The notes: a model not told the origin generated them from the letters alone. A DNA stretch of 64,000 nt from an uncultured Candidatus Saccharibacteria bacterium (GCA_964360585.1 CAYHXC010000006.1:8256-72255), one strand, 5' to 3'; positions 7,076-43,802 are shown, counted from the first letter of the stretch. Made by a program: numbers and translations.

Positions 7076-9145
7076 ATGATGGCAGATATTCCTCCCAAGG
7101 CTCAACGCATGACTGATGTTCGTCCGCCCGAGGCTTCACCGGGCGAAGGCCAGTTGCCAGCTGTTCTTGTTGATCAAAAGCCACAAAAAGAAGTTACTGC
7201 CGAACTTCGCGCGGCGCGAGCGCCCCGAAAAAAACTCAAGCCGCAGTTTCGTTACGCCGTGCATATCTTGATTGTTCTTGTTATTACACTTATCGTTGGG
7301 TTTGGCGTGATGCGGTTCAGTTTTTTAAGCGAGCAGATTTCACGGGCGATTGCCTCGGTTCGCATGATCGCGAAGCAGGGAATGCCGATTGCCAGTTTGC
7401 CGCAAACTGGTTCAGTGGTCTCGAAGGATACTCCCAGTCAGTTTACCTCGCTTCCAACCTCTACCTCGTTCACATCGCTTTTGCGTGGCGCCAGTCTTTC
7501 CGATATCTGGACGGTTTTTGCGCATGGCGGTGAGGCGCTTGGTCGTTTCCAAAAAACAGTTACCGACTATCAGGCCTTAAATACGGAAGTTGATGCTTTC
7601 TTGAATCAAGTTCCCGGTATTTTCCTTTCCAGCCACAAGGAGGGGCCGCTCCCATCATTACGGCGCATTCAGACAAATGTCCGGACGTTCCAGGCGCACA
7701 ATTCTGACCTTTCAACCTCGCTCACGTCGGTCAAGGATGCTTTGCCAATTGATTTTGGCGAGTACTTGGCCATGGGAAAGAGTTTGGATCGCATGTCAGA
7801 TTTTCTCGCGGCAAGCGTGCGATGGCTTGAGAAGCCGCATCATCTCGTCCTCGGATTCCAGAACTCTTCAGAGATGCGGCCATCCGGCGGATTTTTTGGC
7901 AGTTACGCCGAACTTAAAATGGCGAGCGGGACGATCTATGATCTCCAGGTTCACGACGTGACCGAAGCGGACAAAGTTTTTTCGGAGTCCATCGTGCCGC
8001 CCCAACCGCTTCAGTTCGTGACCAAAAACTGGCGCACGGCTGACGCCAACTGGTATTTTGATTTTCCCCACTCGGCTTCGCAAACTTTGGCCTTTTTAAA
8101 AAAATCCAATCTATATGCCTCGAGTACGCCGTTTGACGGATTTATCGCTGTCTCACCCCGGGTGCTTGAGGATGTTTTAAAAATTACCGGATCGATCGAG
8201 CTCAAGGATAGAAACATAACCTTGACCGCCGATAATTTCTTGCGTGAGATTCAGGGAGAGGTGGTTGCCAGTCGGGCGGATTCCGCCACCGCCCCAAAAA
8301 GTATTTTAGGCGAGATTGTTTCGGCGCTCGAGACGAGATTTATAAAACTGCCACCCGAGGATCGATCGGAACTTGCCGGACTTTTTCTTGATTGGGTGCG
8401 GTACAAGGACATCCAGGTTTTTATGACTGATCCTGAATTGCAGTCGCTCGCCCGTTACTTTGGCGCTGATGGCGGTGTGGTTTCAGGCTCGGCCGCACTG
8501 AACACTGAATACTTGGCGCTCGTTGATAGCACAATTGGCGGCGAGAAAACTAATTTGGTTCTCGATCGGACAATTACTTTCCGGGCGCAGATTGAGTCCG
8601 ACGGCAGTGTTCGTCACGAACTGAATATCGTCCGGAAGCATACAGGTGACAAAGAAAAAGAGCGCTGGTACCGCGTTCCGAACAAAACATACTTCCGCGC
8701 ACTCATCACCCCCGGCAGTGCCGTAACTGGCGCGAGTGGTTTTACCGAACGAACTTCGCCGGGACGATCGTATACCAAAGATTACGTTCGTGATTCAGGT
8801 CTGGTGGTCTACGAATCCACAATGAAAAATGTACTTGGCATTCCGTCCATCAAATTGTTTGAAGAGTCAGAGAAGATGAGTGTGGCCGGTTGGATCATAA
8901 CCGAGGTGGGAAAACAAAATAAAATGACGCTGACCTACGATTACCAACTACCGGAGAAACCGGACAACGGGGTGCCGTATCGTTTTGTTTTTGAAAAACA
9001 GGCCGGCACGGAAGGGGATTATAGTTTCGAAATTGACGCGCCGGTCGGCTATCATTTTAAGGAAAACCAACTGCCGATTTTTGAGTACAAGACGGAAGAC
9101 ATTCCAGGGAGGGTGGTGATGGATCTGACATTAGAAAAAATATAA
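7076..9145 (+). CDS. large hypothetical protein with a single N-terminal TM anchor
   Basis: 689 aa ORF with the TM segment HILIVLVITLIVGFGVM near the N-terminus. Family not recognised; a DUF4012-like assignment is possible but unverified. Confidence 0.6.
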   Translation: MMADIPPKAQRMTDVRPPEASPGEGQLPAVLVDQKPQKEVTAELRAARAPRKKLKPQFRYAVHILIVLVITLIVGFGVMRFSFLSEQISRAIASVRMIAKQGMPIASLPQTGSVVSKDTPSQFTSLPTSTSFTSLLRGASLSDIWTVFAHGGEALGRFQKTVTDYQALNTEVDAFLNQVPGIFLSSHKEGPLPSLRRIQTNVRTFQAHNSDLSTSLTSVKDALPIDFGEYLAMGKSLDRMSDFLAASVRWLEKPHHLVLGFQNSSEMRPSGGFFGSYAELKMASGTIYDLQVHDVTEADKVFSESIVPPQPLQFVTKNWRTADANWYFDFPHSASQTLAFLKKSNLYASSTPFDGFIAVSPRVLEDVLKITGSIELKDRNITLTADNFLREIQGEVVASRADSATAPKSILGEIVSALETRFIKLPPEDRSELAGLFLDWVRYKDIQVFMTDPELQSLARYFGADGGVVSGSAALNTEYLALVDSTIGGEKTNLVLDRTITFRAQIESDGSVRHELNIVRKHTGDKEKERWYRVPNKTYFRALITPGSAVTGASGFTERTSPGRSYTKDYVRDSGLVVYESTMKNVLGIPSIKLFEESEKMSVAGWIITEVGKQNKMTLTYDYQLPEKPDNGVPYRFVFEKQAGTEGDYSFEIDAPVGYHFKENQLPIFEYKTEDIPGRVVMDLTLEKI

Positions 9146-12790: not shown

Positions 12791-13343
12791 GGTTCATCGC
12801 CGTAAGCTGGCGCTTTTTTGCGTGGTTCTTGGCCTTGGCATATTTGCTGTAATTTACGGAGGATTCTACCCCATACTTATGGTCAATGGCGATTGGGTTC
12901 TGGCTCGGCAGTTTGATCTGCATCTCCGCGCGGCGGAAGAGTATGAGAAAAATACGGCCGCGGCGACTTCAACTCCTTCCGTTTTAAAGGACAGTAATTT
13001 GGTCACCGCTGTTTTAGAAGGTCTTATTGAAGAAAAACTTATTGAACGCGGTGCGCGGCGAGAGTTCAGTTCGGAGCTTGAAGCTCGGAAGAAGGAATTG
13101 CTAGCCAGCTTTCTCAAGGATAATCCTATTACCGGAGAGGAAGGCGCTCGTTATGGGATGAAGCTCATGGTTTTTGAGCAAGAGATTCTTCTGCCCCAGA
13201 TTACCCGCGATCTTCTCGCCGGACGGCTTTATTTGCAATCCTTGCGCCTTGAAGACTGGCTGACATTTGAAAAAAAGAATGCCCGAGTTTCTATTTTTTC
13301 AAAAGTATTCACCTGGGACGGGGGGAGTGTCAAAACAAAATAA
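12762..13343 (+). CDS. hypothetical membrane-anchored protein
   Basis: ORF track. N-terminal TM. Overlaps the upstream gene. Confidence 0.45.
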   Translation: MRARLRQVIRVHRRKLALFCVVLGLGIFAVIYGGFYPILMVNGDWVLARQFDLHLRAAEEYEKNTAAATSTPSVLKDSNLVTAVLEGLIEEKLIERGARREFSSELEARKKELLASFLKDNPITGEEGARYGMKLMVFEQEILLPQITRDLLAGRLYLQSLRLEDWLTFEKKNARVSIFSKVFTWDGGSVKTK

Positions 13344-13441
13344 TTGCTGGTTTTCTAAAAACAGCTTAGAGTAATTTTCATTGGCGGGCTTGCCCGCGCT
13401 CCGTCGGCCAAAGCCTCTGGCGGCGTGAGACCGAAGCTTTA

Positions 13442-13492
13442 GCGAGGCGAGTAGTACGATAGCCCTGCCTGCCGGCAGGCAGGTTCCCAAGC
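13442..13492 (+). pseudogene. tRNA-like 5'-half fragment (acceptor/D-arm-like GCGAGGCGAGTAGTACGATAGCC ... TTCCCAA)
   Basis: Resembles the 5' half of the downstream tRNA-Gly (GCGAGAGTAGTACAATGGCAG...CTTGCTTCCCAAGCAAG) but is not foldable as a tRNA. It contains a 10+10 bp perfect palindrome CCTGCCTGCCGGCAGGCAGG. Confidence 0.4.
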
Positions 13493-13612
13493 CCCTCACC
13501 CAATAAGCAAAGTATGCGAGAGTAGTACAATGGCAGTACACTTGCTTCCCAAGCAAGAAACGCGGGTCCGATTCCCGTCTCTCGCTCCAAGGTTGCTTAT
13601 TAGGTGAGGGGC
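13491..13612. repeat. 20-bp inverted repeat pair flanking the tRNA (GCCCCTCACCCAATAAGCAA / TTGCTTATTAGGTGAGGGGC)
   Basis: The arms at 13491-13510 and 13593-13612 are reverse complements with 1 mismatch. Confidence 0.8.
13516..13589 (+). tRNA. tRNA-Gly (anticodon CCC)
   Basis: Manual fold: acceptor GCGAGAG/CTCTCGC, D-arm GTAC-AATGGCA-GTAC, anticodon stem CTTGC/GCAAG with loop TTCCCAA, T-arm ...GGGTCCGATTCCC..., discriminator T, CCA encoded. Confidence 0.85.
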
Positions 13613-13715
13613 AAGCTAAGGATGCGGTCCGACTTGTGGTGAGTTTATCGAACCATTCCGCTCACCCGCTCCAGTTTTGTAGAAAAAGATACAGAGTATT
13701 TTGCTTGGTTCTGCC

Positions 13716-13814
13716 TTGAACGAGCAGGCGGCGAGGCTTCGCGTGCGGCTCGCGGGTAAAAGATTTCCTCTCCCCCCACCCCCTCGTTCACTTTTCCCAC
13801 TCATCAGTCCGGCC
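13716..13814. repeat. 98-bp inverted repeat, left copy (IR-L)
   Basis: Reverse complement of 16296-16393 at about 97% identity; it differs by a C-tract length and one substitution. Confidence 0.9.
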
Positions 13815-13949
13815 CACGTGGATATGGGTGCAATGGCGGCGCGTCTCACAGAAGAATACTCTGCGCCTTTAAGATTTTAGCGCTTAGCTTGCCAACTTTT
13901 GGTTTTTAGCTATGCACTTTAGATATTTATATTGTACAATAGAACAGTA

Positions 13950-15401
13950 ATGTCAAAAATAGAAAAGAAGGGAACGTTTCGCCTCGTGGTTTTTTTGGTT
14001 GCTATTGTATTCGCATTTACAATTTCGGTTGCAGTTGCCTCGCTTACATTTACCACCACGAATGTCACAAGCGACTCGACGCTCACCATTGACAGCGAAG
14101 GAGCACTCACAATTGGCAACGCCACTGCCACCACCGTCACCGTGGGAAGAAGTGGTTTTACGGTTTCGTTTCCGGGAAATGTCTCGACCACGAACTTCAC
14201 GGCCACAAACGTCTCGACGACCAATCTGACCGCCTCGGGGTATGGTCTGTTTACAACCTTGAACTTTACCAATACTTCGGGAACCAATATCACCGTTTCC
14301 GGATATGGAACCTTCCCGACCCTTAACTTTACCACGTCGACGGGCACTTCTTTCACGGTCACGAACGCTACCGCGACCACACTGCGTTTTACCAATGCCT
14401 CTGGTACAAGCCTTACACTTTCAAACGCCTTGGACATTTCTTCAGGAGGACTAGGAACGAGTACTGCCCCATCAGCCAGTGTGGTTCTTGTCGGCGACGG
14501 TACGAATTATCAATTTTCAACGATACCCAACTGTGCGACTGGTTCAACGGACAAGCTACTCTACACCAGTTCTACCCGAACCTTTACCTGTGGTAGCGAC
14601 CAAACGGGTGTAGGAGGAACAGAGTCCGGCTGGAGAACCAATAGTCCCTTCGTGTATCTTGCGACCTCAACTGATATTGTCGGCATCGGCGCAACTTCTA
14701 CGGGCGTGAAGTTCTCAATTCAAGGTACAAGCGTGGCTTCTACCACGCTTCTTATTCAAGGAATGGCGGCGCAAACCGGGGATCTTCTGCGCGTTGCTTC
14801 TTCTGGCGGTCAAATCTACTGGCAGATATCCTCTTTGGGCGTTGCGTCGTCGTCTGAACTTATTGTTAATTCCTCGACTATTGCGAGGCTTGCCTTTACC
14901 AATGCCACGAGCACCGGCAACCTCCAAGCGTCAACAATTAATATTACTGGAGTCTCAACGCTCCAAGGATTCACCTTTACGAACGCCACAGGAACAACTA
15001 TGAATACCTCGGGTAATGGCACTTTTGGTTCAATCACAACGACCGGCCAATCATCTTTGGTCTCGGTTTCCTCTACCAATTTGAGCGCTTCTTCGTCGCT
15101 TATTATCGGTTATGGTGCTCCGATTCTAAAACATATTTCGGTGACTTCCTCGCTTGATATCGCCAGTGTTTCAGCGTCAACATGTGTTAACACCACAAGC
15201 ACCGTAACTGGTGCGGCAACCGGAGATACGGTACTTGCGACACCAACCCCCGTAGCAAGCGGCATCGAGACTCTGGCGCTTTCGTGGAATGCATGGATTT
15301 CAGCCGCAAATACAGTTACGCTCCGAGCATGTAATATTATGACCATCACTTCCCAGGATCCTGCAGCGGAAACCTGGCGCTTCGATGTTTGGCAACATTA
15401 G
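13950..15401 (+). CDS. Thr/Ser/Asn-rich repeat surface protein (beta-helix/fibre-like) with an N-terminal membrane anchor
   Basis: Internal ~21-aa repeats (GYGLFTTLNFTNTSGTNITVS / GYGTFPTLNFTTSTGTSFTVT / ...TLRFTNASGTSLTLS), many NxT motifs, N-terminal hydrophobic segment. Confidence 0.6.
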   Translation: MSKIEKKGTFRLVVFLVAIVFAFTISVAVASLTFTTTNVTSDSTLTIDSEGALTIGNATATTVTVGRSGFTVSFPGNVSTTNFTATNVSTTNLTASGYGLFTTLNFTNTSGTNITVSGYGTFPTLNFTTSTGTSFTVTNATATTLRFTNASGTSLTLSNALDISSGGLGTSTAPSASVVLVGDGTNYQFSTIPNCATGSTDKLLYTSSTRTFTCGSDQTGVGGTESGWRTNSPFVYLATSTDIVGIGATSTGVKFSIQGTSVASTTLLIQGMAAQTGDLLRVASSGGQIYWQISSLGVASSSELIVNSSTIARLAFTNATSTGNLQASTINITGVSTLQGFTFTNATGTTMNTSGNGTFGSITTTGQSSLVSVSSTNLSASSSLIIGYGAPILKHISVTSSLDIASVSASTCVNTTSTVTGAATGDTVLATPTPVASGIETLALSWNAWISAANTVTLRACNIMTITSQDPAAETWRFDVWQH

Positions 15402-16293
15402 ACGCTATGATCGTTTTCCGTGTCGCGCACTACTTCTTGTTTTTGCGCTGGGGTTTTTACTATTGACGAATAATGCGCATGCCGCACCTCTTACTTACAG
15501 CGCAGATATAACCATCTCGCTCACCTCTCCGGCAATAGACTTTATTGTTAAATCGGGTTCATTTGCCGACACCTTAACCACGAACGCAACAAGCGCTATT
15601 GTCACACTTTCAAGTTCTACGGGAGGAAATTTTACGCTTATCTCTGCCTCACGCGATATTTCGATTGCGACCTCAAGTAGCGGCGGCGTCGTAACCACAA
15701 GTTGCACGAGCGGAGTGGCGAGTACTACGATTTCCCAGACAAATGGCTCCAGCGTCTATACGATATCAGCTGCTGCCTCGCAGTGTACCGCCTCAACCAC
15801 AGCTTCCTCCCTCACCGCAACCCCCTCAGTTACCATTGGCGTCCCACCCTATACGCCACCGTGCGATACATTACCACCCGGCACTCATGTGCCATGTCTC
15901 GTCTCACTCACAAATCCACTGGCTGTCCCGCGCGTACTGTCCTTGGAAGACCAGTTGGCAAATCCTTCCGCCATCTTGGAATCCATGCGTCGAGAAGCCA
16001 ACCGTCGCGGCATTATACCTACAGACACTTCACGCCAAAGCTTTTCTTGGATCTCGCGGAATCTCACCATAGGTTCAAGTGGAAAAGACGTGCAAGAATT
16101 ACAAGCTTTTCTTATTGGCCAGCAGAAGGGTCGCTACGCCCTTACGTTGAGAAAAATCGGTGCGAGTGGTTATTTCGGCGTCGCGACACAGCGAGCCTTA
16201 CAAGAATTTCAAGCTTTCCACAACATCAAGCCAGCGAGGGGTTACTTTGGCCCCAAGACGATCAAATACCTACGTACGTTTTTCGATCAATAG
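15385..16293 (+). CDS. secreted protein with a C-terminal peptidoglycan-binding domain (PG_binding_1-like)
   Basis: Signal peptide ending AHA|AP, a Thr/Ser-rich middle, and a C-terminal ...LQAFLIGQQ...GYFGVATQRALQEFQAFHNIKPARGYFGPKT typical of the putative PG-binding domain. Confidence 0.6.
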   Translation: MFGNIRRYDRFPCRALLLVFALGFLLLTNNAHAAPLTYSADITISLTSPAIDFIVKSGSFADTLTTNATSAIVTLSSSTGGNFTLISASRDISIATSSSGGVVTTSCTSGVASTTISQTNGSSVYTISAAASQCTASTTASSLTATPSVTIGVPPYTPPCDTLPPGTHVPCLVSLTNPLAVPRVLSLEDQLANPSAILESMRREANRRGIIPTDTSRQSFSWISRNLTIGSSGKDVQELQAFLIGQQKGRYALTLRKIGASGYFGVATQRALQEFQAFHNIKPARGYFGPKTIKYLRTFFDQ

Positions 16294-16295
16294 GA

Positions 16296-16393
16296 GGCCG
16301 GACTGATGAGTGGGAAAAGTGAACGAGGGGGTGGGGAGAGAGGAAATCTTTTACCCACGAGCCGCACGCGAAGCCTCGCCGCCTGCTCGTTCA
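16296..16393. repeat. 98-bp inverted repeat, right copy (IR-R)
   Basis: Begins 3 nt after the stop of gene 15385..16293; partner of IR-L. Confidence 0.9.
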
Positions 16394-16526
16394 GGGCTAA
16401 GCTCAGCTTTGCCGTAGCTTTTAGCGAAGGAGGGGATTCCGTATCCCGCTCCCGCAAGATAGCAATGTTGTATACTTAAGGCAGGTAGAAAAGAGGTCGG
16501 CTTCTTAAATTAATCAATACAATACT

Positions 16527-17081
16527 ATGATTCTTTGGATTGTTCTAGGAATTATCGTCGTTTTGGCGGTTTGGGTGATCGTTGTTTTTAACGCGCTCGT
16601 TCGGAATCGAATGCGGGTAAAAGATGCCTGGTCGGATATCGACGTTCAGCTGAAACGCCGCTATGACCTTGTGCCGAACCTCGTTGAAACTGTAAAAGGT
16701 TATAAAGAATATGAGGCCTCTGTCCTGGAAAATGTAACCAAAGCGCGCGTTGCGGCCATGAGTTTAGAGCCGGCTGGTCCCAAAGATCGGGCCAAAGCCG
16801 AAGATATGTTTACTGGCGCCTTAAAGACGCTTTTTGCGGTTTCAGAAAACTATCCGCAACTCAAAGCTTCGGAGAATTTTAAACAGCTTCAGGATCAGCT
16901 TTCACTTATCGAAAACGATATTCAGTCGGCCCGTCGGTACTACAACGCAACGGTTCGCGAAATGAACATTGCGATTAAAGTTTTTCCGACGAGTGTTGTC
17001 GCCGGGGCCTTAGGTTTTGACGAAGAAGAATTTTTTGGCGTTGAAGAAGGGGAACGCGAACCAGTAAAGGTTTCATTTTAG
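16527..17081 (+). CDS. lemA: LemA family protein
   Basis: N-terminal TM plus ...DAWSDIDVQLKRRYDLVPNLVETVKGY...SARRYYNATVREMN, the LemA signature. Confidence 0.85.
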   Translation: MILWIVLGIIVVLAVWVIVVFNALVRNRMRVKDAWSDIDVQLKRRYDLVPNLVETVKGYKEYEASVLENVTKARVAAMSLEPAGPKDRAKAEDMFTGALKTLFAVSENYPQLKASENFKQLQDQLSLIENDIQSARRYYNATVREMNIAIKVFPTSVVAGALGFDEEEFFGVEEGEREPVKVSF

Positions 17082-17145
17082 ACCGTTCCATTGACGAAAA
17101 TCAGGAGTTAGTTCAAGCTGGAGACAGTCTCGATTGGGAGGAAAA

Positions 17146-17511
17146 ATGAGCCTACAGACAATTGGCGCTTTGCGGGCAGTCATGATTACCGATGAGCCCA
17201 ATCTCGTCGTCATTCACGGTTTGGAAATTGATTTTGAGGCCAAAGGAGCGAATGTTCGTGATACGCAAGACCAGTTTGAAATAGGTCTTGTGGAGGTATT
17301 TCGGGAACACACGAAGCGCATGGGGGGTATACGCAACCTCTGGAAAGTGGCGCCACCGGAATTTTGGCTTCATGTCGTGGATGGAGCCACCCAGGGAGAG
17401 TTACGCCAAACTCCTCAGCTTTTCCCATTTTCTCATGTTCTCTACCTCCAATCTCCACTTCGTTTGCCGTCACGCCTTCCGCTCAGTTTGGTGGGGCAGT
17501 CAGCAGCCTAG
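17146..17511 (+). CDS. hypothetical protein
   Basis: GGGAGG RBS 5 nt before ATG (MSLQTIG...). Confidence 0.4.
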   Translation: MSLQTIGALRAVMITDEPNLVVIHGLEIDFEAKGANVRDTQDQFEIGLVEVFREHTKRMGGIRNLWKVAPPEFWLHVVDGATQGELRQTPQLFPFSHVLYLQSPLRLPSRLPLSLVGQSAA

Positions 17512-17593
17512 CGATATTCGCTGGGCTTTTTTTATTGACACATGGTAGATTGTTTTCTATTTTAGAACAAGCAAGTATTGATTGGAGGGAAAC

Positions 17594-18064
17594 ATGGATC
17601 ACGTTGTGTCGGCTGAAGTTGCCCATGGCCACACAGTCTTTGGTGTGGAAAATCCCACAGGTCAAGAGAACTGTCATGTCCTTGTAAAAAAGGATCTTAG
17701 TGGAAAGGTGTTGGAGCAGATTCAGGCCGAACACTGGCTGAATCAATGTCCGGTTTGCGAAGGGAATCTCCACGCACAATTAAAATGTTCTCGTGGCAGT
17801 ACATTCCAGGCGAACCTCAACTGGTGGGAAAAGATACGGAGAATGTGTTCTTCGTGCCAGATTATCTGGGAGCTCGTCTGTAGCAACCACACGGAAGAAC
17901 GGGGAGACGGGATGATCACCAGGATGAGTCATAAACTCACTCTTCTCGGTTACAACAACTGTTTCTGTCGGGCACTTGTTTTCCCGAAATTTAATGATGG
18001 AGGCCTTTCCATCCACAGAGGAGTAGGTCACTCCAGACTGAATGTAATCTGCAGGAATCAATGA
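17594..18064 (+). CDS. hypothetical Cys-rich protein (CPVC...C...C, CSSC...C zinc-ribbon-like)
   Basis: GGAGGG RBS before ATG (MDHVV...). Terminator downstream at 18068-18100. Confidence 0.4.
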   Translation: MDHVVSAEVAHGHTVFGVENPTGQENCHVLVKKDLSGKVLEQIQAEHWLNQCPVCEGNLHAQLKCSRGSTFQANLNWWEKIRRMCSSCQIIWELVCSNHTEERGDGMITRMSHKLTLLGYNNCFCRALVFPKFNDGGLSIHRGVGHSRLNVICRNQ

Positions 18065-18067
18065 AGT

Positions 18068-18100
18068 GGACCGCACAGTATATCACTGGCGGTCTTTTTT
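18068..18100. terminator. bidirectional rho-independent terminator between convergent genes
   Basis: GGACCGCacagtatatcACTGGCGGTC followed by TTTTTT. Confidence 0.55.
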
Positions 18101-18122
18101 AATGCTCGGAAATCATGACTGC

Positions 18123-39382: not shown

Positions 39383-41500
39383 ATGAAAAGAATCCTTACG
39401 GTTTTCTTTTCTCTTAGCCTTGTTTTTGCTCTTGCTCAAGTATCTGAAGTTCGCGCCTCAGGAAATGGTCCGTTCTTCACGGGTTGGTCGCCACTTACAA
39501 CTGCCACGGCTACCCAGCCGTACCAGTATGATGTGAATGCTCAGGATCCGGAGAATGATGTGTTAGTTTACAGTCTATTGTCCGCACCAGCTGGTATGAC
39601 AATCGACAGTGCCACCGGAGTAATCTCCTGGACGCCGGATGCCTCACAGGTATCCGCGACGCCGTATGACGTCGAAGTCGAGGTTTCCGATGGTTCGAAC
39701 ACAATCTCGCGACCGTTTCAGGTAACAGTGTCCGGAAGTAATCTCGGTCCATTCTTCATTCAGTGGGCGCCAGTCACGACTGCTACAGCCACCGAGTTGT
39801 ACGGTTATGACGTAAACGCCTTTGATCCGGAAAACGATCCGTTGACGTATAGTTTGGTAACCGCACCGTCTGGTATGACGATCGACAGTTCGACTGGCGT
39901 GATCTCTTGGACGCCCGACATCGCCCAGGTCTCAACGACCCCGTACGATGCCGAGGTTGAAGTTACTGATGGTGTAAATACCATCGCTCGTCCGTTTCAG
40001 GTGACGGTAGCGGCTCCGACTTCCGGTAGTGGAAATCTCGGTCCATTCTTCATTCAGTGGGCGCCAGTCACGACTGCGACAGCCGACCAGCTGTACTGGT
40101 ACGACGTAAACGCCTTTGATCCGGAGAATGATCCGTTGACTTTCAGTTTGGTCAGTTCGACCCCAGCAGGAATCACGATTAACGCTTCGAGCGGTTTGAT
40201 CGAGTGGACACCAACACAAGCTCAAGCTACTTCGACCGCGTACGTGATCAATGTTCAGGTTGCTGATCCGACGCACGCTGTTAGCCGGGACTTTCCGATT
40301 ACGGTGAGTTTGGCGACAACGTCTACCAACATCGGTCCGTTTTTCCAGGGCTGGAATCCACTCACCACTGCTACAGCCACCGTGCCGTACAGTTATGATG
40401 TGAATGCCCAGGACGGGGAGAACGATCCGCTGACCTATACTTTGGTCAGCTCGACGCCGGCTGGTATGACGATTAACGCTTCGAGCGGTTTGATCGAGTG
40501 GACACCCACTTTGACTCAAGCTACTTCGACACCGTATGACGTGACCGTGCAGGTCAACGATCCCTTCACTGCGGATCCGACCCACACGATTCAACGCAGC
40601 TTCCAGATCACTGTAGCCGATGCACCGACTTCGACCACACCAACTTCAACACCGCCGGTTAATCCACCAGGAGGTGGAGGCGGAGGAGGGGGCGGTGGCG
40701 GTGGTGGGGGAGGCGGATCAATCACTTTGGTCCCTTCTTCTAACCCGTCCTGTCCTCCGAACTGTGGTGGTGGCGGACCGATTGGAGTTCCGACCGGAAG
40801 CGTAAATCTTCCGCCGTACTTCGTTGGTTTCAATCCGATCACAGTGGCGCCAATTAACGTTATGTATTTGTACGACGCTAATGCTACTGACCCGGAGAAT
40901 CAGCCGCTCACTTTCAGTATCTTGGAAGGACCGGCTGGTCTTGGCATCCTACCGAGTAATGGCTTGATCTACTGGACCCCGACGGCCAGCCAGGCTCGCA
41001 CCACGCCGTACACGGTTATGGTGCAGGTCTCGGACGGTACGCTCGTGGCCACGACCTCGTATGCGATTACGGTTCCGGTGACGTTGATTGTGACTACACC
41101 TGTAGTCGTGACCCCGACGCCGACCGTTACGCCGATAGGTTCAGGCGATGCGACAACGACTCTTGCGACCACAACCGCTCCGGTTGCGGTCGCACCGAGC
41201 CCGCTCCTCGCTATGCTTACCGGTATCGCTGACTGGTTCCGCGACAATTACTGCGTGATGGGCTACCTCCTGTGGCTCTTGACCGTTCTTGCCTGGCTTG
41301 CCTATCTTCTCTTTGACGAAAGAGAGGAGAGCAAGGACCGAGCGCGAGCGGCCGAGGAGTTGCAAGAAGAGCTTGATGACGTAGCCGATATGGTCGAAGA
41401 ACCGATCATGGCGCATCCGAGCACGCGTTTTTCGGGAGGCTCAACTACGTTTGAGACAACTCCGCAAAATCTCGCGACAGGCCAAGGAAGAGAGGTTTAA
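39383..41500 (+). CDS. secreted surface protein: signal peptide, 6 He_PIG/cadherin-like Ig repeats, G16 linker, C-terminal TM and an acidic tail
   Basis: Repeats GPFF(T/I)(G/Q)W(S/A)P(L/V)TTATAT.PY.YDVNA.DPEND.L.YSL..AP.GMTIDS.TGVISWTP; GGGGGGGGGGGGGGGG at nt ~40670-40717; YLLWLLTVLAWLAYLLF TM. Confidence 0.7.
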   Translation: MKRILTVFFSLSLVFALAQVSEVRASGNGPFFTGWSPLTTATATQPYQYDVNAQDPENDVLVYSLLSAPAGMTIDSATGVISWTPDASQVSATPYDVEVEVSDGSNTISRPFQVTVSGSNLGPFFIQWAPVTTATATELYGYDVNAFDPENDPLTYSLVTAPSGMTIDSSTGVISWTPDIAQVSTTPYDAEVEVTDGVNTIARPFQVTVAAPTSGSGNLGPFFIQWAPVTTATADQLYWYDVNAFDPENDPLTFSLVSSTPAGITINASSGLIEWTPTQAQATSTAYVINVQVADPTHAVSRDFPITVSLATTSTNIGPFFQGWNPLTTATATVPYSYDVNAQDGENDPLTYTLVSSTPAGMTINASSGLIEWTPTLTQATSTPYDVTVQVNDPFTADPTHTIQRSFQITVADAPTSTTPTSTPPVNPPGGGGGGGGGGGGGGGGSITLVPSSNPSCPPNCGGGGPIGVPTGSVNLPPYFVGFNPITVAPINVMYLYDANATDPENQPLTFSILEGPAGLGILPSNGLIYWTPTASQARTTPYTVMVQVSDGTLVATTSYAITVPVTLIVTTPVVVTPTPTVTPIGSGDATTTLATTTAPVAVAPSPLLAMLTGIADWFRDNYCVMGYLLWLLTVLAWLAYLLFDEREESKDRARAAEELQEELDDVADMVEEPIMAHPSTRFSGGSTTFETTPQNLATGQGREV

Positions 41501-41512
41501 AAACCCTAAGAA

Positions 41513-41538
41513 GCCGCTCAGAAATGAGCGGCTTTTTA
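41513..41538 (+). terminator. rho-independent terminator
   Basis: GCCGCTCAgaaaTGAGCGGC followed by TTTTT. Confidence 0.7.
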
Positions 41539-41584
41539 GTTTCTTTTTCGATTTTTCAGTCTTCAGATTTTCTCCATGAATCCT

Positions 41585-41613
41585 TTGACACAATACAAAA
41601 TATGACGTAGAAT
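41585..41613 (+). promoter_or_regulatory. sigma70 promoter TTGACA-N17-TAGAAT
   Basis: Seen directly upstream of gene 41682. Confidence 0.55.
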
Positions 41614-41681
41614 GCGGCCAGTTCCAGATCATCGTCAACTTAAAATTCTGAACCGAAAACTTTGAGAAAGAGGAGGCAACC

Positions 41682-43802
41682 ATGAAATGTGTCAGGATTA
41701 TCGTCATTTTTTTGACGATAGCGTTCCTGGCGGGAGGGGCGGTGGCGCAGTCGAACTGCTTCATTGTTCATTCTGGCCCAGGATGCGACGATCCAGTTTG
41801 CGCGGATAAAGTTTGCGCACTCGATCGTTGCCCGTTCTGCTGCAGCCCCAATAATAAACAGTGGGACACGAGTTGCGCCAATGAGGCGAACGCCTTATGT
41901 CGCGGCACGGCAACGCCGGCACTGACAGTGACGTCCAGCCGGACGATCACCCCGAGCCCAACGGCGACACTTACACCGCCTGACGACAGTACGGTGACGC
42001 CGATACCCACGACAACGTGGACTCGGACAACTGTGCCGTCGGGAACTCCAACGGCAACATTTGTTCCACCGACGTCGACTGTAACGGCGAGTGTGACTCC
42101 GATGGGGACCTTATCTCCATCGGGCACGCCACTGAACACGGCGACGCCAACGTTTACGGCAACAGTAACGTTCACACCGACTCCAAGCGACACACTGACG
42201 CGTACCCCAACCGGGACACGAACAGAAACGGTGACGGGAACGCCAACGAATACGGCAATTCCGACGCCGACTATGACGCGTACGGGAACAACGACACCCA
42301 CACCAAGCGGAGACTGTTGCAGTGAACACGACGAACCGGGATGTAAGATTCCGGCGTGTCAGGCGGCAGTGTGTAATCCGAATGGTATTGGGGATCCTTC
42401 GTGCTGTATGGCGCTCTTCACATCGCCGCATTGGGATGCTTCGTGTGTTGGAGCAGCATTCTTTTATCAAAACGAATGTGGATGCCAAGCTCCAACGCCA
42501 ACAGCAACGGCGACCATGACGGGTACGCTCGTTCCGACGCAGACTCGTACACCAACAATGACGCGAACGCCGACGAACACACGGACCGCAACTGAAACCA
42601 GAACGGCAACGGAAATCCCGGCACCGACGGAAACAGAAGTGCCGACGGATACGCCAGAGCCAACGGAAACATCGGCACCCACGAACACGCGGACGTTCAC
42701 TAAGACGGCCACGATGACGCGGACACCGACATGGACAAAGACGGAAACTACGATGCCGGAGCCGACGGAAACTGAAGCTCCGACAGAAACCCCGGAATCG
42801 ACCGAGACAGCGGTACCGACGAATACTCGGACCGCGACTCGCACTCCGACCTGGACGCGTACACCAACAATGACGCGAACAGCAACGAGAACGCCGACGG
42901 TGGAATCGTCAGTTGGGAGCTGTTGTGAGGCTCACGATACTCCTGGCTGCAATGAACCGGTTTGCGAATCGGTAATCTGCTCCATTGATCCGTTGTGCTG
43001 TCAGCCGAGCGGTATTCGCACAGATTTTGATTTGAGCTGTGCGAGTATTCCGAACGATCCGCGGTATCGGGAGTTCTGCGCTTGCGCACAACAACCGGAA
43101 CCAACAGAAACACCGACCGAGGTATTCACGGCAACGCGGACACCAACATCAACTCGGACAATGACGTTCACGCGGACACCGACTGCCACTAAAACAGCGG
43201 TGGACACTCCGACAGAGACTCCAACGCGTACTCCGACAGATACCAGGACCGACACTCCGACGCGGACACCGACTGATACTTGGACCGAGACTCCAACGCG
43301 TACCCCCAGCGGGACGCGTGAACCGACGGAGACGCGGACGGCTACTCGGACTCCGACAAACACCAGAACCGATACGCCGACTCGGACGGATACTCCGACG
43401 CGGACACCAACGGACACCCGGACGGAGATTCCTTCGCGAACTCCAACTGGGACACGTGAACCAACGGAGACGCGGACATTTACGCCAAGTCGAGTGCCAA
43501 CAGATACGCGCACCGCGACACCGGTCAATCCAACCCGGACACCAACTGCAGGAATGTGTGGTATAAACCCTGTATGTTGGGGCGACTGTGACGGCAACTG
43601 TCGCGTCACGGTCGATGAGATGGTAACCGGAGTGAATCTTCTCTTCGAGAAGGAGTCTCCGACCTTTGAGCCCTGTTTCTTCCAATTCAATCGAAGCAGG
43701 GAACGAGATCCTCGTCGGGCAGTTCCGCCTCCGAGGATTACGGTGGATGAGCTAGTGACAGGCGTGAATAATCTGCTTCACAGCTGCCAGCGACCACAGT
43801 GA
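41682..43802 (+). CDS. secreted Thr/Pro-rich protein with three Cys-rich modules and a C-terminal dockerin-like tandem repeat
   Basis: Signal peptide. Modules CFIVHSGPGCDDPVC...C, DCCSEHDEPGCKIPACQAAVCNP...C, SCCEAHDTPGCNEPVCESVIC...C separated by (TPT.TRT)n linkers. C-terminus GDCDGNCRVTVDEMVTGVNLL ... RITVDELVTGVNNLL resembles dockerin Ca-binding repeats. Confidence 0.65.
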   Translation: MKCVRIIVIFLTIAFLAGGAVAQSNCFIVHSGPGCDDPVCADKVCALDRCPFCCSPNNKQWDTSCANEANALCRGTATPALTVTSSRTITPSPTATLTPPDDSTVTPIPTTTWTRTTVPSGTPTATFVPPTSTVTASVTPMGTLSPSGTPLNTATPTFTATVTFTPTPSDTLTRTPTGTRTETVTGTPTNTAIPTPTMTRTGTTTPTPSGDCCSEHDEPGCKIPACQAAVCNPNGIGDPSCCMALFTSPHWDASCVGAAFFYQNECGCQAPTPTATATMTGTLVPTQTRTPTMTRTPTNTRTATETRTATEIPAPTETEVPTDTPEPTETSAPTNTRTFTKTATMTRTPTWTKTETTMPEPTETEAPTETPESTETAVPTNTRTATRTPTWTRTPTMTRTATRTPTVESSVGSCCEAHDTPGCNEPVCESVICSIDPLCCQPSGIRTDFDLSCASIPNDPRYREFCACAQQPEPTETPTEVFTATRTPTSTRTMTFTRTPTATKTAVDTPTETPTRTPTDTRTDTPTRTPTDTWTETPTRTPSGTREPTETRTATRTPTNTRTDTPTRTDTPTRTPTDTRTEIPSRTPTGTREPTETRTFTPSRVPTDTRTATPVNPTRTPTAGMCGINPVCWGDCDGNCRVTVDEMVTGVNLLFEKESPTFEPCFFQFNRSRERDPRRAVPPPRITVDELVTGVNNLLHSCQRPQ

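Follow-up and report, generated by a model that had tools for sequence, protein, structure and literature searches.

The stretch of DNA analysed here (the window) comprises 64,000 nucleotides, given as one strand, from an uncultured Candidatus Saccharibacteria bacterium (GCA_964360585.1 CAYHXC010000006.1:8256-72255), whose window proteins carry the NCBI label 'MAG: Patescibacteria group bacterium'. Between a SurA_N-like gene and lemA (positions 13344-16526) it contains an intact tRNA-Gly(CCC) nested among tRNA-Gly fragments and flanked by a 20-bp inverted repeat (IR), followed by a cassette of two surface-protein genes, g1 and g2, bracketed by a 102-bp IR (all oriented features described below lie on the plus strand). 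We interpret this locus as a lineage-specific, decayed and recombinase-less insertion scar at a tRNA-Gly(CCC)-lemA hotspot, which would have delivered the surface-protein pair and which is not an active switch; our rough probability for this reading is 0.55. The locus, known from a single instance, combines two known kinds of structure, a tRNA-site islet and an IR-bounded cassette.

The strongest result comes from a relative in which the site is empty. In L071 (Logan SRR14001291), the closest syntenic relative, the gene order is the same as in the window, with tblastn identities of 79% for LysRS, 60% for DUF4012, 86% for LepA, 63% for DivIC, 54% for the SurA_N-like protein, 74% for LemA, 83% for ABC-3 and 70% for ABC_tran. 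In contrast, the interval from the SurA_N-like stop to the lemA start spans 164 nt in L071 versus 3,183 nt in the window, and tRNA-Gly(CCC) is separated from lemA by 51 nt versus 2,937 nt. In L071, the leader (41 nt) and the spacer to lemA (51 nt) enclose only a plain tRNA-Gly(CCC), and neither IRs, nor tRNA fragments, nor a cassette were found at this site. This comparison shows an ancestral arrangement of SurA_N-like gene, 41-nt leader, tRNA-Gly(CCC), 51-nt spacer and lemA, and it also shows some 3 kb of the window (the tRNA nest and the cassette) to be a lineage-specific addition at a conserved tRNA-Gly/lemA junction. In a more distant locus from Magasanikbacteria (L015), lemA is immediately preceded by tRNA-Gly(CCC), tRNA-Gly(GCC) and a terminator. 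An insertion 3' of a tRNA gene, together with a relative lacking the insert, is the pattern expected of a tRNA-site island, and the view of a previous sequence-only reading, in which a tRNA site was the target of an insertion-type feature, is borne out by the empty site of L071 and by the tRNA-Gly fragments flanking the inserted DNA. No close relative is at hand, as the best LemA homologues in a collection of 5.8 billion proteins reach only 73-75% identity; the homologue at 73% is the one encoded on the L071 contig.

The leader of the tRNA locus (13344-13383), with the hexamers TTGCTG and TAGAGT on either side of a 17-nt spacer, is homologous to the 41-nt leader of L071 (p about 0.01 for the alignment); the two hexamers, read directly from the sequence, are promoter-like and may function as a promoter. 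At the opposite end, the region upstream of lemA (16453-16526), which contains TGTATACT, GGCAGGTAG and AGGTCGG, is homologous to the 51-nt tRNA-to-lemA spacer of L071, and lemA itself (16527-17081) is the conserved right-hand neighbour and synteny anchor.

Three stretches within the addition appear to be remnants of tRNA-Gly genes. Two of them align as halves of one dead, L071-like tRNA-Gly(CCC). The 5' half (13442-13492) consists of GCGAGGCGAG, TAGTAC, a D-arm deletion, GATAGC, a 20-nt palindrome (13464-13483) and TTCCCAAGC, and stops at sequential tRNA position 39; its alignment reads GAGTAGTAC-GATAGC-palindrome-TTCCCAAGC, without the D loop and one GTAC strand. The 3' half (13612-13673) consists of CAAGCTAAGGATGCGGTCCGA and ATTCCGCTCACCCGCTCCA, between which the T loop is enlarged by about 22 nt (13633-13654). 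The third stretch (16434-16452, GATTCCGTATCCCGCTCC) is a 3'-end fragment in direct orientation, running from the T loop to the acceptor end. The significance of these similarities was assessed by gap-tolerant local alignment, with about 1,900 random same-size window segments as the null. The segment 13590-13712 aligns with the L071 tRNA from position 35 (sequential numbering) through the CCA end and scored 29.75 versus a control maximum of 24.5 (p<0.0005). For the segment 13344-13515, aligned to the tRNA 5' part, p was about 0.001 when the L071 tRNA served as the reference and <0.0005 when the intact tRNA of the window did. The third fragment gave p 0.02-0.03 by itself and p 0.0005 when 16398-16526 was aligned to the L071 tRNA 3' end plus lemA spacer, an alignment that covers GATTCCGTATCCCGCTCC, a -10-like box TGTATA(A/C)T and GGTAG/AGGTCG. 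The halves which the sequence-only reading had described as tRNA-like are thus tRNA-derived by alignment versus empirical controls, although tRNA finders call none of them.

The dead halves resemble the L071 allele rather than the intact tRNA. The anticodon-stem strand of the 5' half is ATAGC, as in L071, versus CTTGC in the intact gene, and the 3' half reads GCTAA versus GCTAT in L071, with the acceptor strand CACCCGC versus CGCCCGC. Both the 3' end of the dead tRNA (13655-13673) and the third fragment (16434-16452) match tRNA-Gly positions about 55-74 in direct orientation, with region-restricted p values of 0.0005-0.03 and window-wide nhmmer E values of 42 and 11, respectively. Direct copies of a tRNA 3' end on both sides of inserted DNA are the usual outcome when an integrase directs integration into a tRNA gene, and the third 3' end, placed beyond the right arm of the 102-bp IR and beside the ancestral lemA spacer, looks like an att-type scar. 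Integration is documented to leave partial tRNA genes next to the inserted elements (PMC9897764). A BLASTN search of phage and plasmid collections returned matches to the tRNA itself only; in Propionibacterium phage DNA, the 3' 44 nt of the window tRNA are matched at sites where no tRNA is annotated, which we read as putative attP-type copies.

In the dead tRNA, the perfect 20-nt palindrome CCTGCCTGCCGGCAGGCAGG (13464-13483) separates the anticodon-stem strand from the anticodon loop. Copies with no more than one mismatch are also present in distantly related genomes of the candidate phyla radiation (CPR), at 12278-12297 in L021 (apparently inside an obg-like gene), 12338-12357 in L028 (in frame in an open reading frame (ORF) taken as htpX-like, where it encodes LPAGRQ), 14103-14118 in L018 and 3294-3313 in L100. 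Relaxing the pattern to CCTGCC-N0-8-GGCAGG yields about 11 occurrences in 1.6 Mb, where roughly one would be expected, and several of them are in L028. Palindromes of this type may represent a small palindromic insertion element.

The one intact tRNA-Gly(CCC) that had been noted at 13516-13589 is called by both ARAGORN and Rfam/Infernal (66.3 bits, E 3e-12), has an encoded CCA and is the sole tRNA called in the window; runs of ARAGORN with relaxed settings, with or without introns, gave no credible further tRNA gene. Its acceptor stem (GCGAGAG/CTCTCGC), its anticodon stem (CTTGC/GCAAG) and its variable loop all differ from those of the dead halves. The flanking 20-bp IR, also seen earlier, was recovered by a repeat finder with arms at 13491-13510 and 13593-13612 (19/20 complementary). 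To put this into perspective, leader/trailer complementarity amounts to 19 nt for this tRNA versus 5-10 nt at best among 119 other tRNA genes from about 150 related and unrelated loci, which makes the IR around the tRNA a clear outlier. The T loop of this tRNA reads TCCGATT, with C (window position 13568) at the usually invariant U55, and the tRNA-Gly genes of L015 do likewise; a replicate assembly (L001) has T at 13568, giving the canonical TTCGATT, so that both variants exist in the population.

The borders of the IR-flanked tRNA coincide with a short direct repeat. The alignments of the 5' and 3' halves overlap exactly by CAAGC, which is present in a single copy at positions 35-39 of the L071 tRNA; in the window, the left copy (13488-13492, tRNA positions 35-39) and the right copy (13612-13616) mark precisely the two outer borders of the IR-flanked tRNA. 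Between them, in the anticodon loop of the dead tRNA, lie 119 bp (13493-13611) with 18-20-bp terminal IRs around the intact tRNA. We infer that this segment came in as a single unit, terminal IRs included, and that CAAGC is a 5-bp target-type duplication. Two hallmarks of a miniature inverted-repeat transposable element, terminal IRs and a target-site duplication at an identifiable target, are found in this unit; no other copies of its terminal repeat or of the tRNA allele were detected in the window, the fetched loci or the viral contigs.

It is tempting to go further and to regard the 119-bp unit as an undescribed bacterial miniature mobile element, which targets the anticodon loop of tRNA-Gly(CCC), generates a 5-bp duplication and complements its own damage by carrying a replacement tRNA, and to see in the 102-bp-IR cassette a larger product, loaded with cargo, of one and the same recombinase-in-trans system of CPR bacteria. 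We consider this extended proposal rather improbable. A distant parallel is offered by fish Dada elements, DNA transposons whose insertion is specific to tRNA genes, at sites around the anticodon (PMC8869645). Dada elements share with the unit a short insert and a target-site duplication in the tRNA anticodon region; they are, however, eukaryotic and transposase-encoding, with 6-7-bp duplications and multicopy targets, whereas the 119-bp unit is bacterial, has a 5-bp repeat and carries a replacement tRNA. Another parallel is with archaeal intron-containing or split tRNAs, whose halves are likewise parted in the anticodon loop by sequence with complementary ends. On the other hand, the halves at this bacterial locus are degenerate (the D arm is deleted, and insertions of 20 nt and 22 nt are present) and lack the bulge-helix-bulge geometry. 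A functional split or intron-containing tRNA is ruled out, because the halves, when joined in silico in three ways, gave no tRNA detectable by ARAGORN even at an 80% threshold.

The cassette itself contains two overlapping genes preceded by a 135-nt AT-rich region (13815-13949), the presumed promoter and ribosome-binding region; a consensus scan of this region found no strong sigma-70 match, and the cassette promoter would be expected within it. The sequence-only reading had correctly described the contents as a Thr/Ser-rich protein with an N-terminal anchor and a signal-peptide protein with a C-terminal peptidoglycan-binding domain. The first gene, g1 (13950-15401), encodes a 483-aa all-beta protein (20% Thr, 14% Ser) with a predicted N-terminal membrane helix at residues 7-24, and no family was found for it in Pfam, NCBIfam or PHROG. 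Its few homologues have only modules in common, namely a central ESGWR...VGIGAT...LLRVASSGG block and a C-terminal ...WRxDVWQH domain, and g1 is thus a mosaic. The AlphaFold model of g1 is poor (pLDDT 60), showing the N-terminal helix followed by all-beta structure, and a fold search gave no significant PDB match (the best being an R-type pyocin fibre, E 0.3). We limit the assignment of g1 to a predicted membrane-anchored, beta-rich surface protein and claim no further function. One replicate assembly (L003, replicate R2) differs from the window at seven positions, all within 65 nt of g1 (15038-15102), and is otherwise identical over 9.4 kb; this part of g1 is a strain-level variable patch or recombination tract.

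The second gene, g2 (15385-16293), encodes 302 aa, its first 17 nt being shared with the end of g1. The C-terminal domain was assigned to PG_binding_1 (E 1.3e-7), and the structural model consists of a signal/anchor helix, a beta-sandwich (35-130), a disordered linker, a helix and PG_binding_1, with pLDDT around 90 in both domains; the PG_binding_1 domain resembles the SleB N-terminal domain (TM 0.83). g2 belongs to a family in Patescibacteria with 16 full-length homologues (33-42% identity over about 86-97% of the length), with which it shares homology in both an N-terminal AAPLTYS...LSSSTGG domain and the C-terminal PG_binding_1. In three unrelated genomes, g2-family genes (42-44% identity, full length) each follow an overlapping, variable upstream gene; for example, the pair in L009 has an identical 17-nt overlap, and two of the three contexts adjoin integrase or serine-recombinase genes. 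None of these three contexts has flanking IRs or an adjacent tRNA, and both were rejected as a general trait of the g2 family, neither having turned up in about 150 loci. Overall, the g1-type/g2 pair is a conserved, portable surface module of Patescibacteria, with the IRs and the tRNA association peculiar to this locus.

The cassette is bracketed by a left arm (IR-L, 13713-13814) and a right arm (IR-R, 16296-16397, beginning 2 nt past the g2 stop codon), which are complementary at 99 of 102 positions, with sharp edges at all four ends and three mismatches, all of them transitions. The previously described pair, given as 98 bp and ~97% identical, is real, and it does enclose the two genes and no recombinase; its extent had been put 4 nt too short, as each arm is 102 nt long. 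The two arms are the only copies of this sequence in the window, and a self-BLAST of the window gave no further copy of either the 102-bp or the 20-bp IR. Among 152 loci (about 1.6 Mb) used as a control, only two further IR pairs measure 35 nt or more with arms over 1 kb apart, and neither surrounds a g2-type gene. We regard the 102-bp IRs as the edges of the cassette-bearing segment. Their origin as termini of a non-autonomous element and their origin by a local inverted duplication at capture are equally possible, and at present the IRs probably do nothing programmed. Gene callers also place a 57-aa ORF (16306-16479) with its start in IR-R, and its strong AGGAGG ribosome-binding site, 8 nt upstream, overlaps the g2 stop codon. 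It is unlikely to be a real gene, having no Pfam match, three non-synonymous IR mismatches and a mirror copy in IR-L without a ribosome-binding site; the ORF is probably spurious, the alternative being translational coupling to g2.

The arms may be suspected to act at the RNA level. In such a scenario, the tRNA and the cassette would be co-transcribed, and the 102-bp duplex and the 20-bp stem would operate as RNase III-type processing or stabilising stems in the manner of the 16S/23S rRNA stems. We find no convincing terminator between the tRNA and IR-L, and the predicted fold is that of a tRNA cloverleaf atop a long leader/trailer helix, both of which would suit this idea. However, the region 13370-13720 folds in excess of shuffled sequences on the two strands alike (z -5.1 and -4.8), as DNA-level inverted repeats predict, and the sense-strand mismatches are C-A in the 20-bp IR and, in the 102-bp IR, C-A in two cases and G-U in one. 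Moreover, no such stem was found in the 119 control tRNAs or in the relatives, which makes an RNA function very unlikely. The arms taken separately fold no better than shuffles on either strand (z -0.3 to +1.5), and their interpretation as structured RNA genes was ruled out on these grounds. A hammerhead-like CUGAUGAG...GAAA in IR-R was likewise dismissed, as an Rfam search of 13200-16600 at E<=10 returned only the tRNA and a chance sRNA match overlapping it.

The terminal repeats of mobile insertion cassettes (MICs) derive from an insertion sequence (IS) and measure a few tens of bp; MICs also generate target-site duplications and have a cognate IS. With these elements (MIC231 and the qnrD/qnrS2 MICs; PMC3913671, PMC2600179) the locus shares IR-bracketed passenger genes without a transposase inside. 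An alternative explanation would accordingly make the segment a non-autonomous transposon of the MIC type, its 102-bp arms being terminal IRs recognised by a transposase encoded elsewhere and its two genes being passengers. Aside from the architecture, which resembles that of IR-bracketed, transposase-less cassettes (PMC3913671), and from the sharp IR ends, this explanation draws on the neighbouring 119-bp IR-bounded insert, which with its 5-bp duplication suggests that insertions of a cut-and-paste-like kind have taken place at the locus. On the other hand, the flanks (GGTTCT before IR-L, TAAGCTC after IR-R) contain no 2-9-bp target-site duplication, although identity between the arms still stands at 97%. 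The repeats are 102 bp long, no related IS, further copy or related terminus is known from the window, the 1.6 Mb of related loci, the viral contigs or the metagenome scan, no transposase was found in the window, and the composition of the cassette is not foreign. Taken together, these features leave a MIC-type transposon an unlikely explanation. The missing target-site duplication and second copy also leave weak the suggestion, made in the sequence-only reading, of a recombinase-in-trans mobilisable island or a foldback element. Exact-pattern scans of the viral contigs for the tRNA allele, the 20-bp IR and the 102-bp IR gave 0 matches each. The metagenome scan, performed with one 24-mer of the 102-bp IR, also gave 0 matches, a negative weakened by the fact that the collection has other ERZ1292623 contigs and did not return the window's own.

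The layout had previously been taken to fit an invertible or phase-variable cassette, and invertons (fim, hin, the Bacteroides capsule promoters) are indeed similar in having an IR-bounded segment next to, or containing, surface-structure genes. The window matches contigs from groundwater (Hainich well H51, 0.1-um-filtered; ENA ERZ1292623, ERZ1292627 and ERZ1292643; Logan ERR3858114/5) at 99.9-100% identity. Contigs from three independent ENA replicate assemblies cross the arms (two cross both arms, and one crosses IR-R), and all of them show one orientation. Three Logan contigs agree with this orientation and end inside or at the edge of an arm, as is expected from graph structure alone, because 31-mers lose their uniqueness there. 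No match to Phage_integrase, Resolvase or a transposase was found in 13344-16526 or in any checked ORF of the 64-kb window. In addition, both ORFs and the 135-nt upstream region sit inside the IRs, so that an inversion would not uncouple the promoter from the genes. Thus, in contig-level data and within the 64-kb window, there are neither two orientations, nor a nearby invertase, nor a changed connection between promoter and gene or between coding ends. The proposal of an invertible or phase-variable cassette is not supported; against it stand this single orientation, the lack of a recombinase among the checked window ORFs, genes and an upstream region that would flip together, and IR mismatches without a strand-consistent G-U pattern.

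The most explicit form of the proposal, a programmed surface-antigen cassette in which a recombinase encoded elsewhere flips the 2.5-kb segment to vary surface proteins, would account for sharp-edged IRs that bracket exactly two surface-protein genes, and it could appeal to the strain-level microdiversity of a surface gene (the seven single-nucleotide polymorphisms at 15038-15102 in one replicate assembly). Invertons, by comparison, have short IRs and an invertase, and their inversion separates a promoter or exchanges coding ends, whereas the segment considered here contains whole genes with their upstream region, in one orientation. The IRs of known invertons are several-fold shorter than 102 bp. 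Given also that other g2-family loci are devoid of IRs, we consider a programmed switch highly improbable. A 102-bp, 97%-identical IR is long enough to serve as a substrate for RecA in occasional homologous recombination. At most, then, rare RecA-dependent flipping may occur, and it would leave expression unchanged because the genes and the upstream region flip together.

Returning to the interpretation as a decayed insertion scar, the observations at the locus could be accommodated in three steps. First, the 3' end of the resident tRNA gene would have been the entry point of a 2.7-kb segment with the self-contained two-gene surface module, a membrane-anchored g1 protein and its secreted g2 partner, and copies of the tRNA 3' end would have been left in direct orientation on either side (13655-13673 and 16434-16452); the integrase would since have been lost, or would never have been part of the 2.7-kb segment. 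Second, the 119-bp insert would have split the resident tRNA in its anticodon loop, duplicating CAAGC and bringing in a tRNA-Gly(CCC) of another allele, which would now supply the function of the destroyed resident gene. Third, the dead halves would have decayed through the D-arm deletion, the insertion of the 20-nt palindrome and the insertion in the T loop.

With tRNA-integrated islands of the tyrosine-integrase type, the locus has in common the placement of DNA directly 3' of a tRNA gene, putative direct copies of the tRNA 3' end around the cargo, an empty relative and a cargo of surface genes. It differs from them in lacking an integrase, in its very small size (2.7 kb) and in its 102-bp IR bounds, which such islands do not have; besides, the repeated 3' ends are about 83% identical, and a 5' half with a nested whole tRNA does not arise from classical integration. 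Several further points weigh against the proposed scar. No integrase gene lies at an end of the island (in 13344-16526 or among the checked window ORFs), and long IRs are not the normal boundaries of integrase-type islands. The 102-bp IR has neither a target-site duplication nor a known terminal motif, and no second copy of either IR-bounded unit was encountered in any of the collections searched; as there is a single instance, mobility is deduced from anatomy alone. ARAGORN and Infernal, relaxed settings included, call no tRNA in the short fragments, a window-wide nhmmer search with a tRNA-Gly profile gives the two 3'-end fragments E=11 and E=42, and the joined halves are not recognised as a tRNA. 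The cassette is not foreign in composition: its tetranucleotide distance is equalled or exceeded in 14 of 123 windows, its GC3 of 0.49 is within the genome range, and a foreign origin judged by either measure was rejected. The Thr/Ser-rich coding is the probable cause of a negative GC skew at 14-16 kb. Furthermore, L071 is related at no more than genus or family level (LemA 74%), and the comparison with it does not tell how many events there were or in which order. There are also weak hints of a tandem duplication of leader and tRNA, an alternative source of the extra 3' end.

These hints lead to an explanation by purely local rearrangement, in which a tandem duplication of leader and tRNA, inverted duplications by template switching and indels would have produced the tRNA nest and the repeats, and illegitimate recombination would have supplied the surface genes. 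A leader-like AT-rich segment does occur again at 13674-13709 (p 0.004), a segment like 13430-13451 occurs again after IR-R (p 0.014), two tandem tRNA-Gly genes occupy the site in L015, and the cassette, not being foreign in composition, fits as well. However, the leader similarity is AT-rich and reversed sequences score nearly as high, while the other collinear segment gives p 0.12. Nor is the intact tRNA a simple local duplicate, since its two acceptor strands and its anticodon stem are unlike those of the dead halves; the gene pair, moreover, is found as a unit elsewhere. We consequently see purely local rearrangement as a minor possibility.

The gene order around the locus is that of an ordinary core genome (LysRS, DUF4012, LepA, DivIC, SurA_N-like, the locus itself, LemA and an ABC-3/ABC_tran pair). 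Four loci (L071, L073, L076 and L160) have a DUF2207 gene of about 570-610 aa after lemA, whereas the window has two short ORFs (121 and 156 aa) without DUF2207 similarity at 17082-18122; the usual LemA partner has thus been lost or replaced in the window. L073, a JGI groundwater contig, has a 516-nt inverted repeat (7396-7860 / 14998-15511, 89% identical) around lemA, DUF2207 and two large genes, the repeat being an inverted duplicate of a 186-aa ORF. Elsewhere in the window, two adjoining proteins of about 705 aa each are encoded at 39383-43802, one with He_PIG/Big_9/cadherin-like Ig repeats and the other without a family; this region, the strongest tetranucleotide outlier of the window (GC 0.55-0.57), is another candidate surface or acquired region. 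Two tandem genes with NYN domains (predicted RNase) are found at 999-2304.

Mobile DNA and surface variation are poorly understood in Patescibacteria, tiny host-attached bacteria in which surface proteins probably mediate attachment. The locus described here offers a clean before-and-after comparison, with a conserved surface module at a tRNA hotspot and no recombinase of its own, and it cautions that an IR-bracketed pair of surface genes need not be a phase-variation switch. In addition, a resident tRNA gene has apparently been destroyed and replaced by a tRNA on an IR-bounded mini-insert. Should this mini-insert prove mobile, it would represent a new type of tRNA-targeting, tRNA-carrying element; should it not, the locus would still be a well-resolved example of how scars accumulate at tRNA loci.

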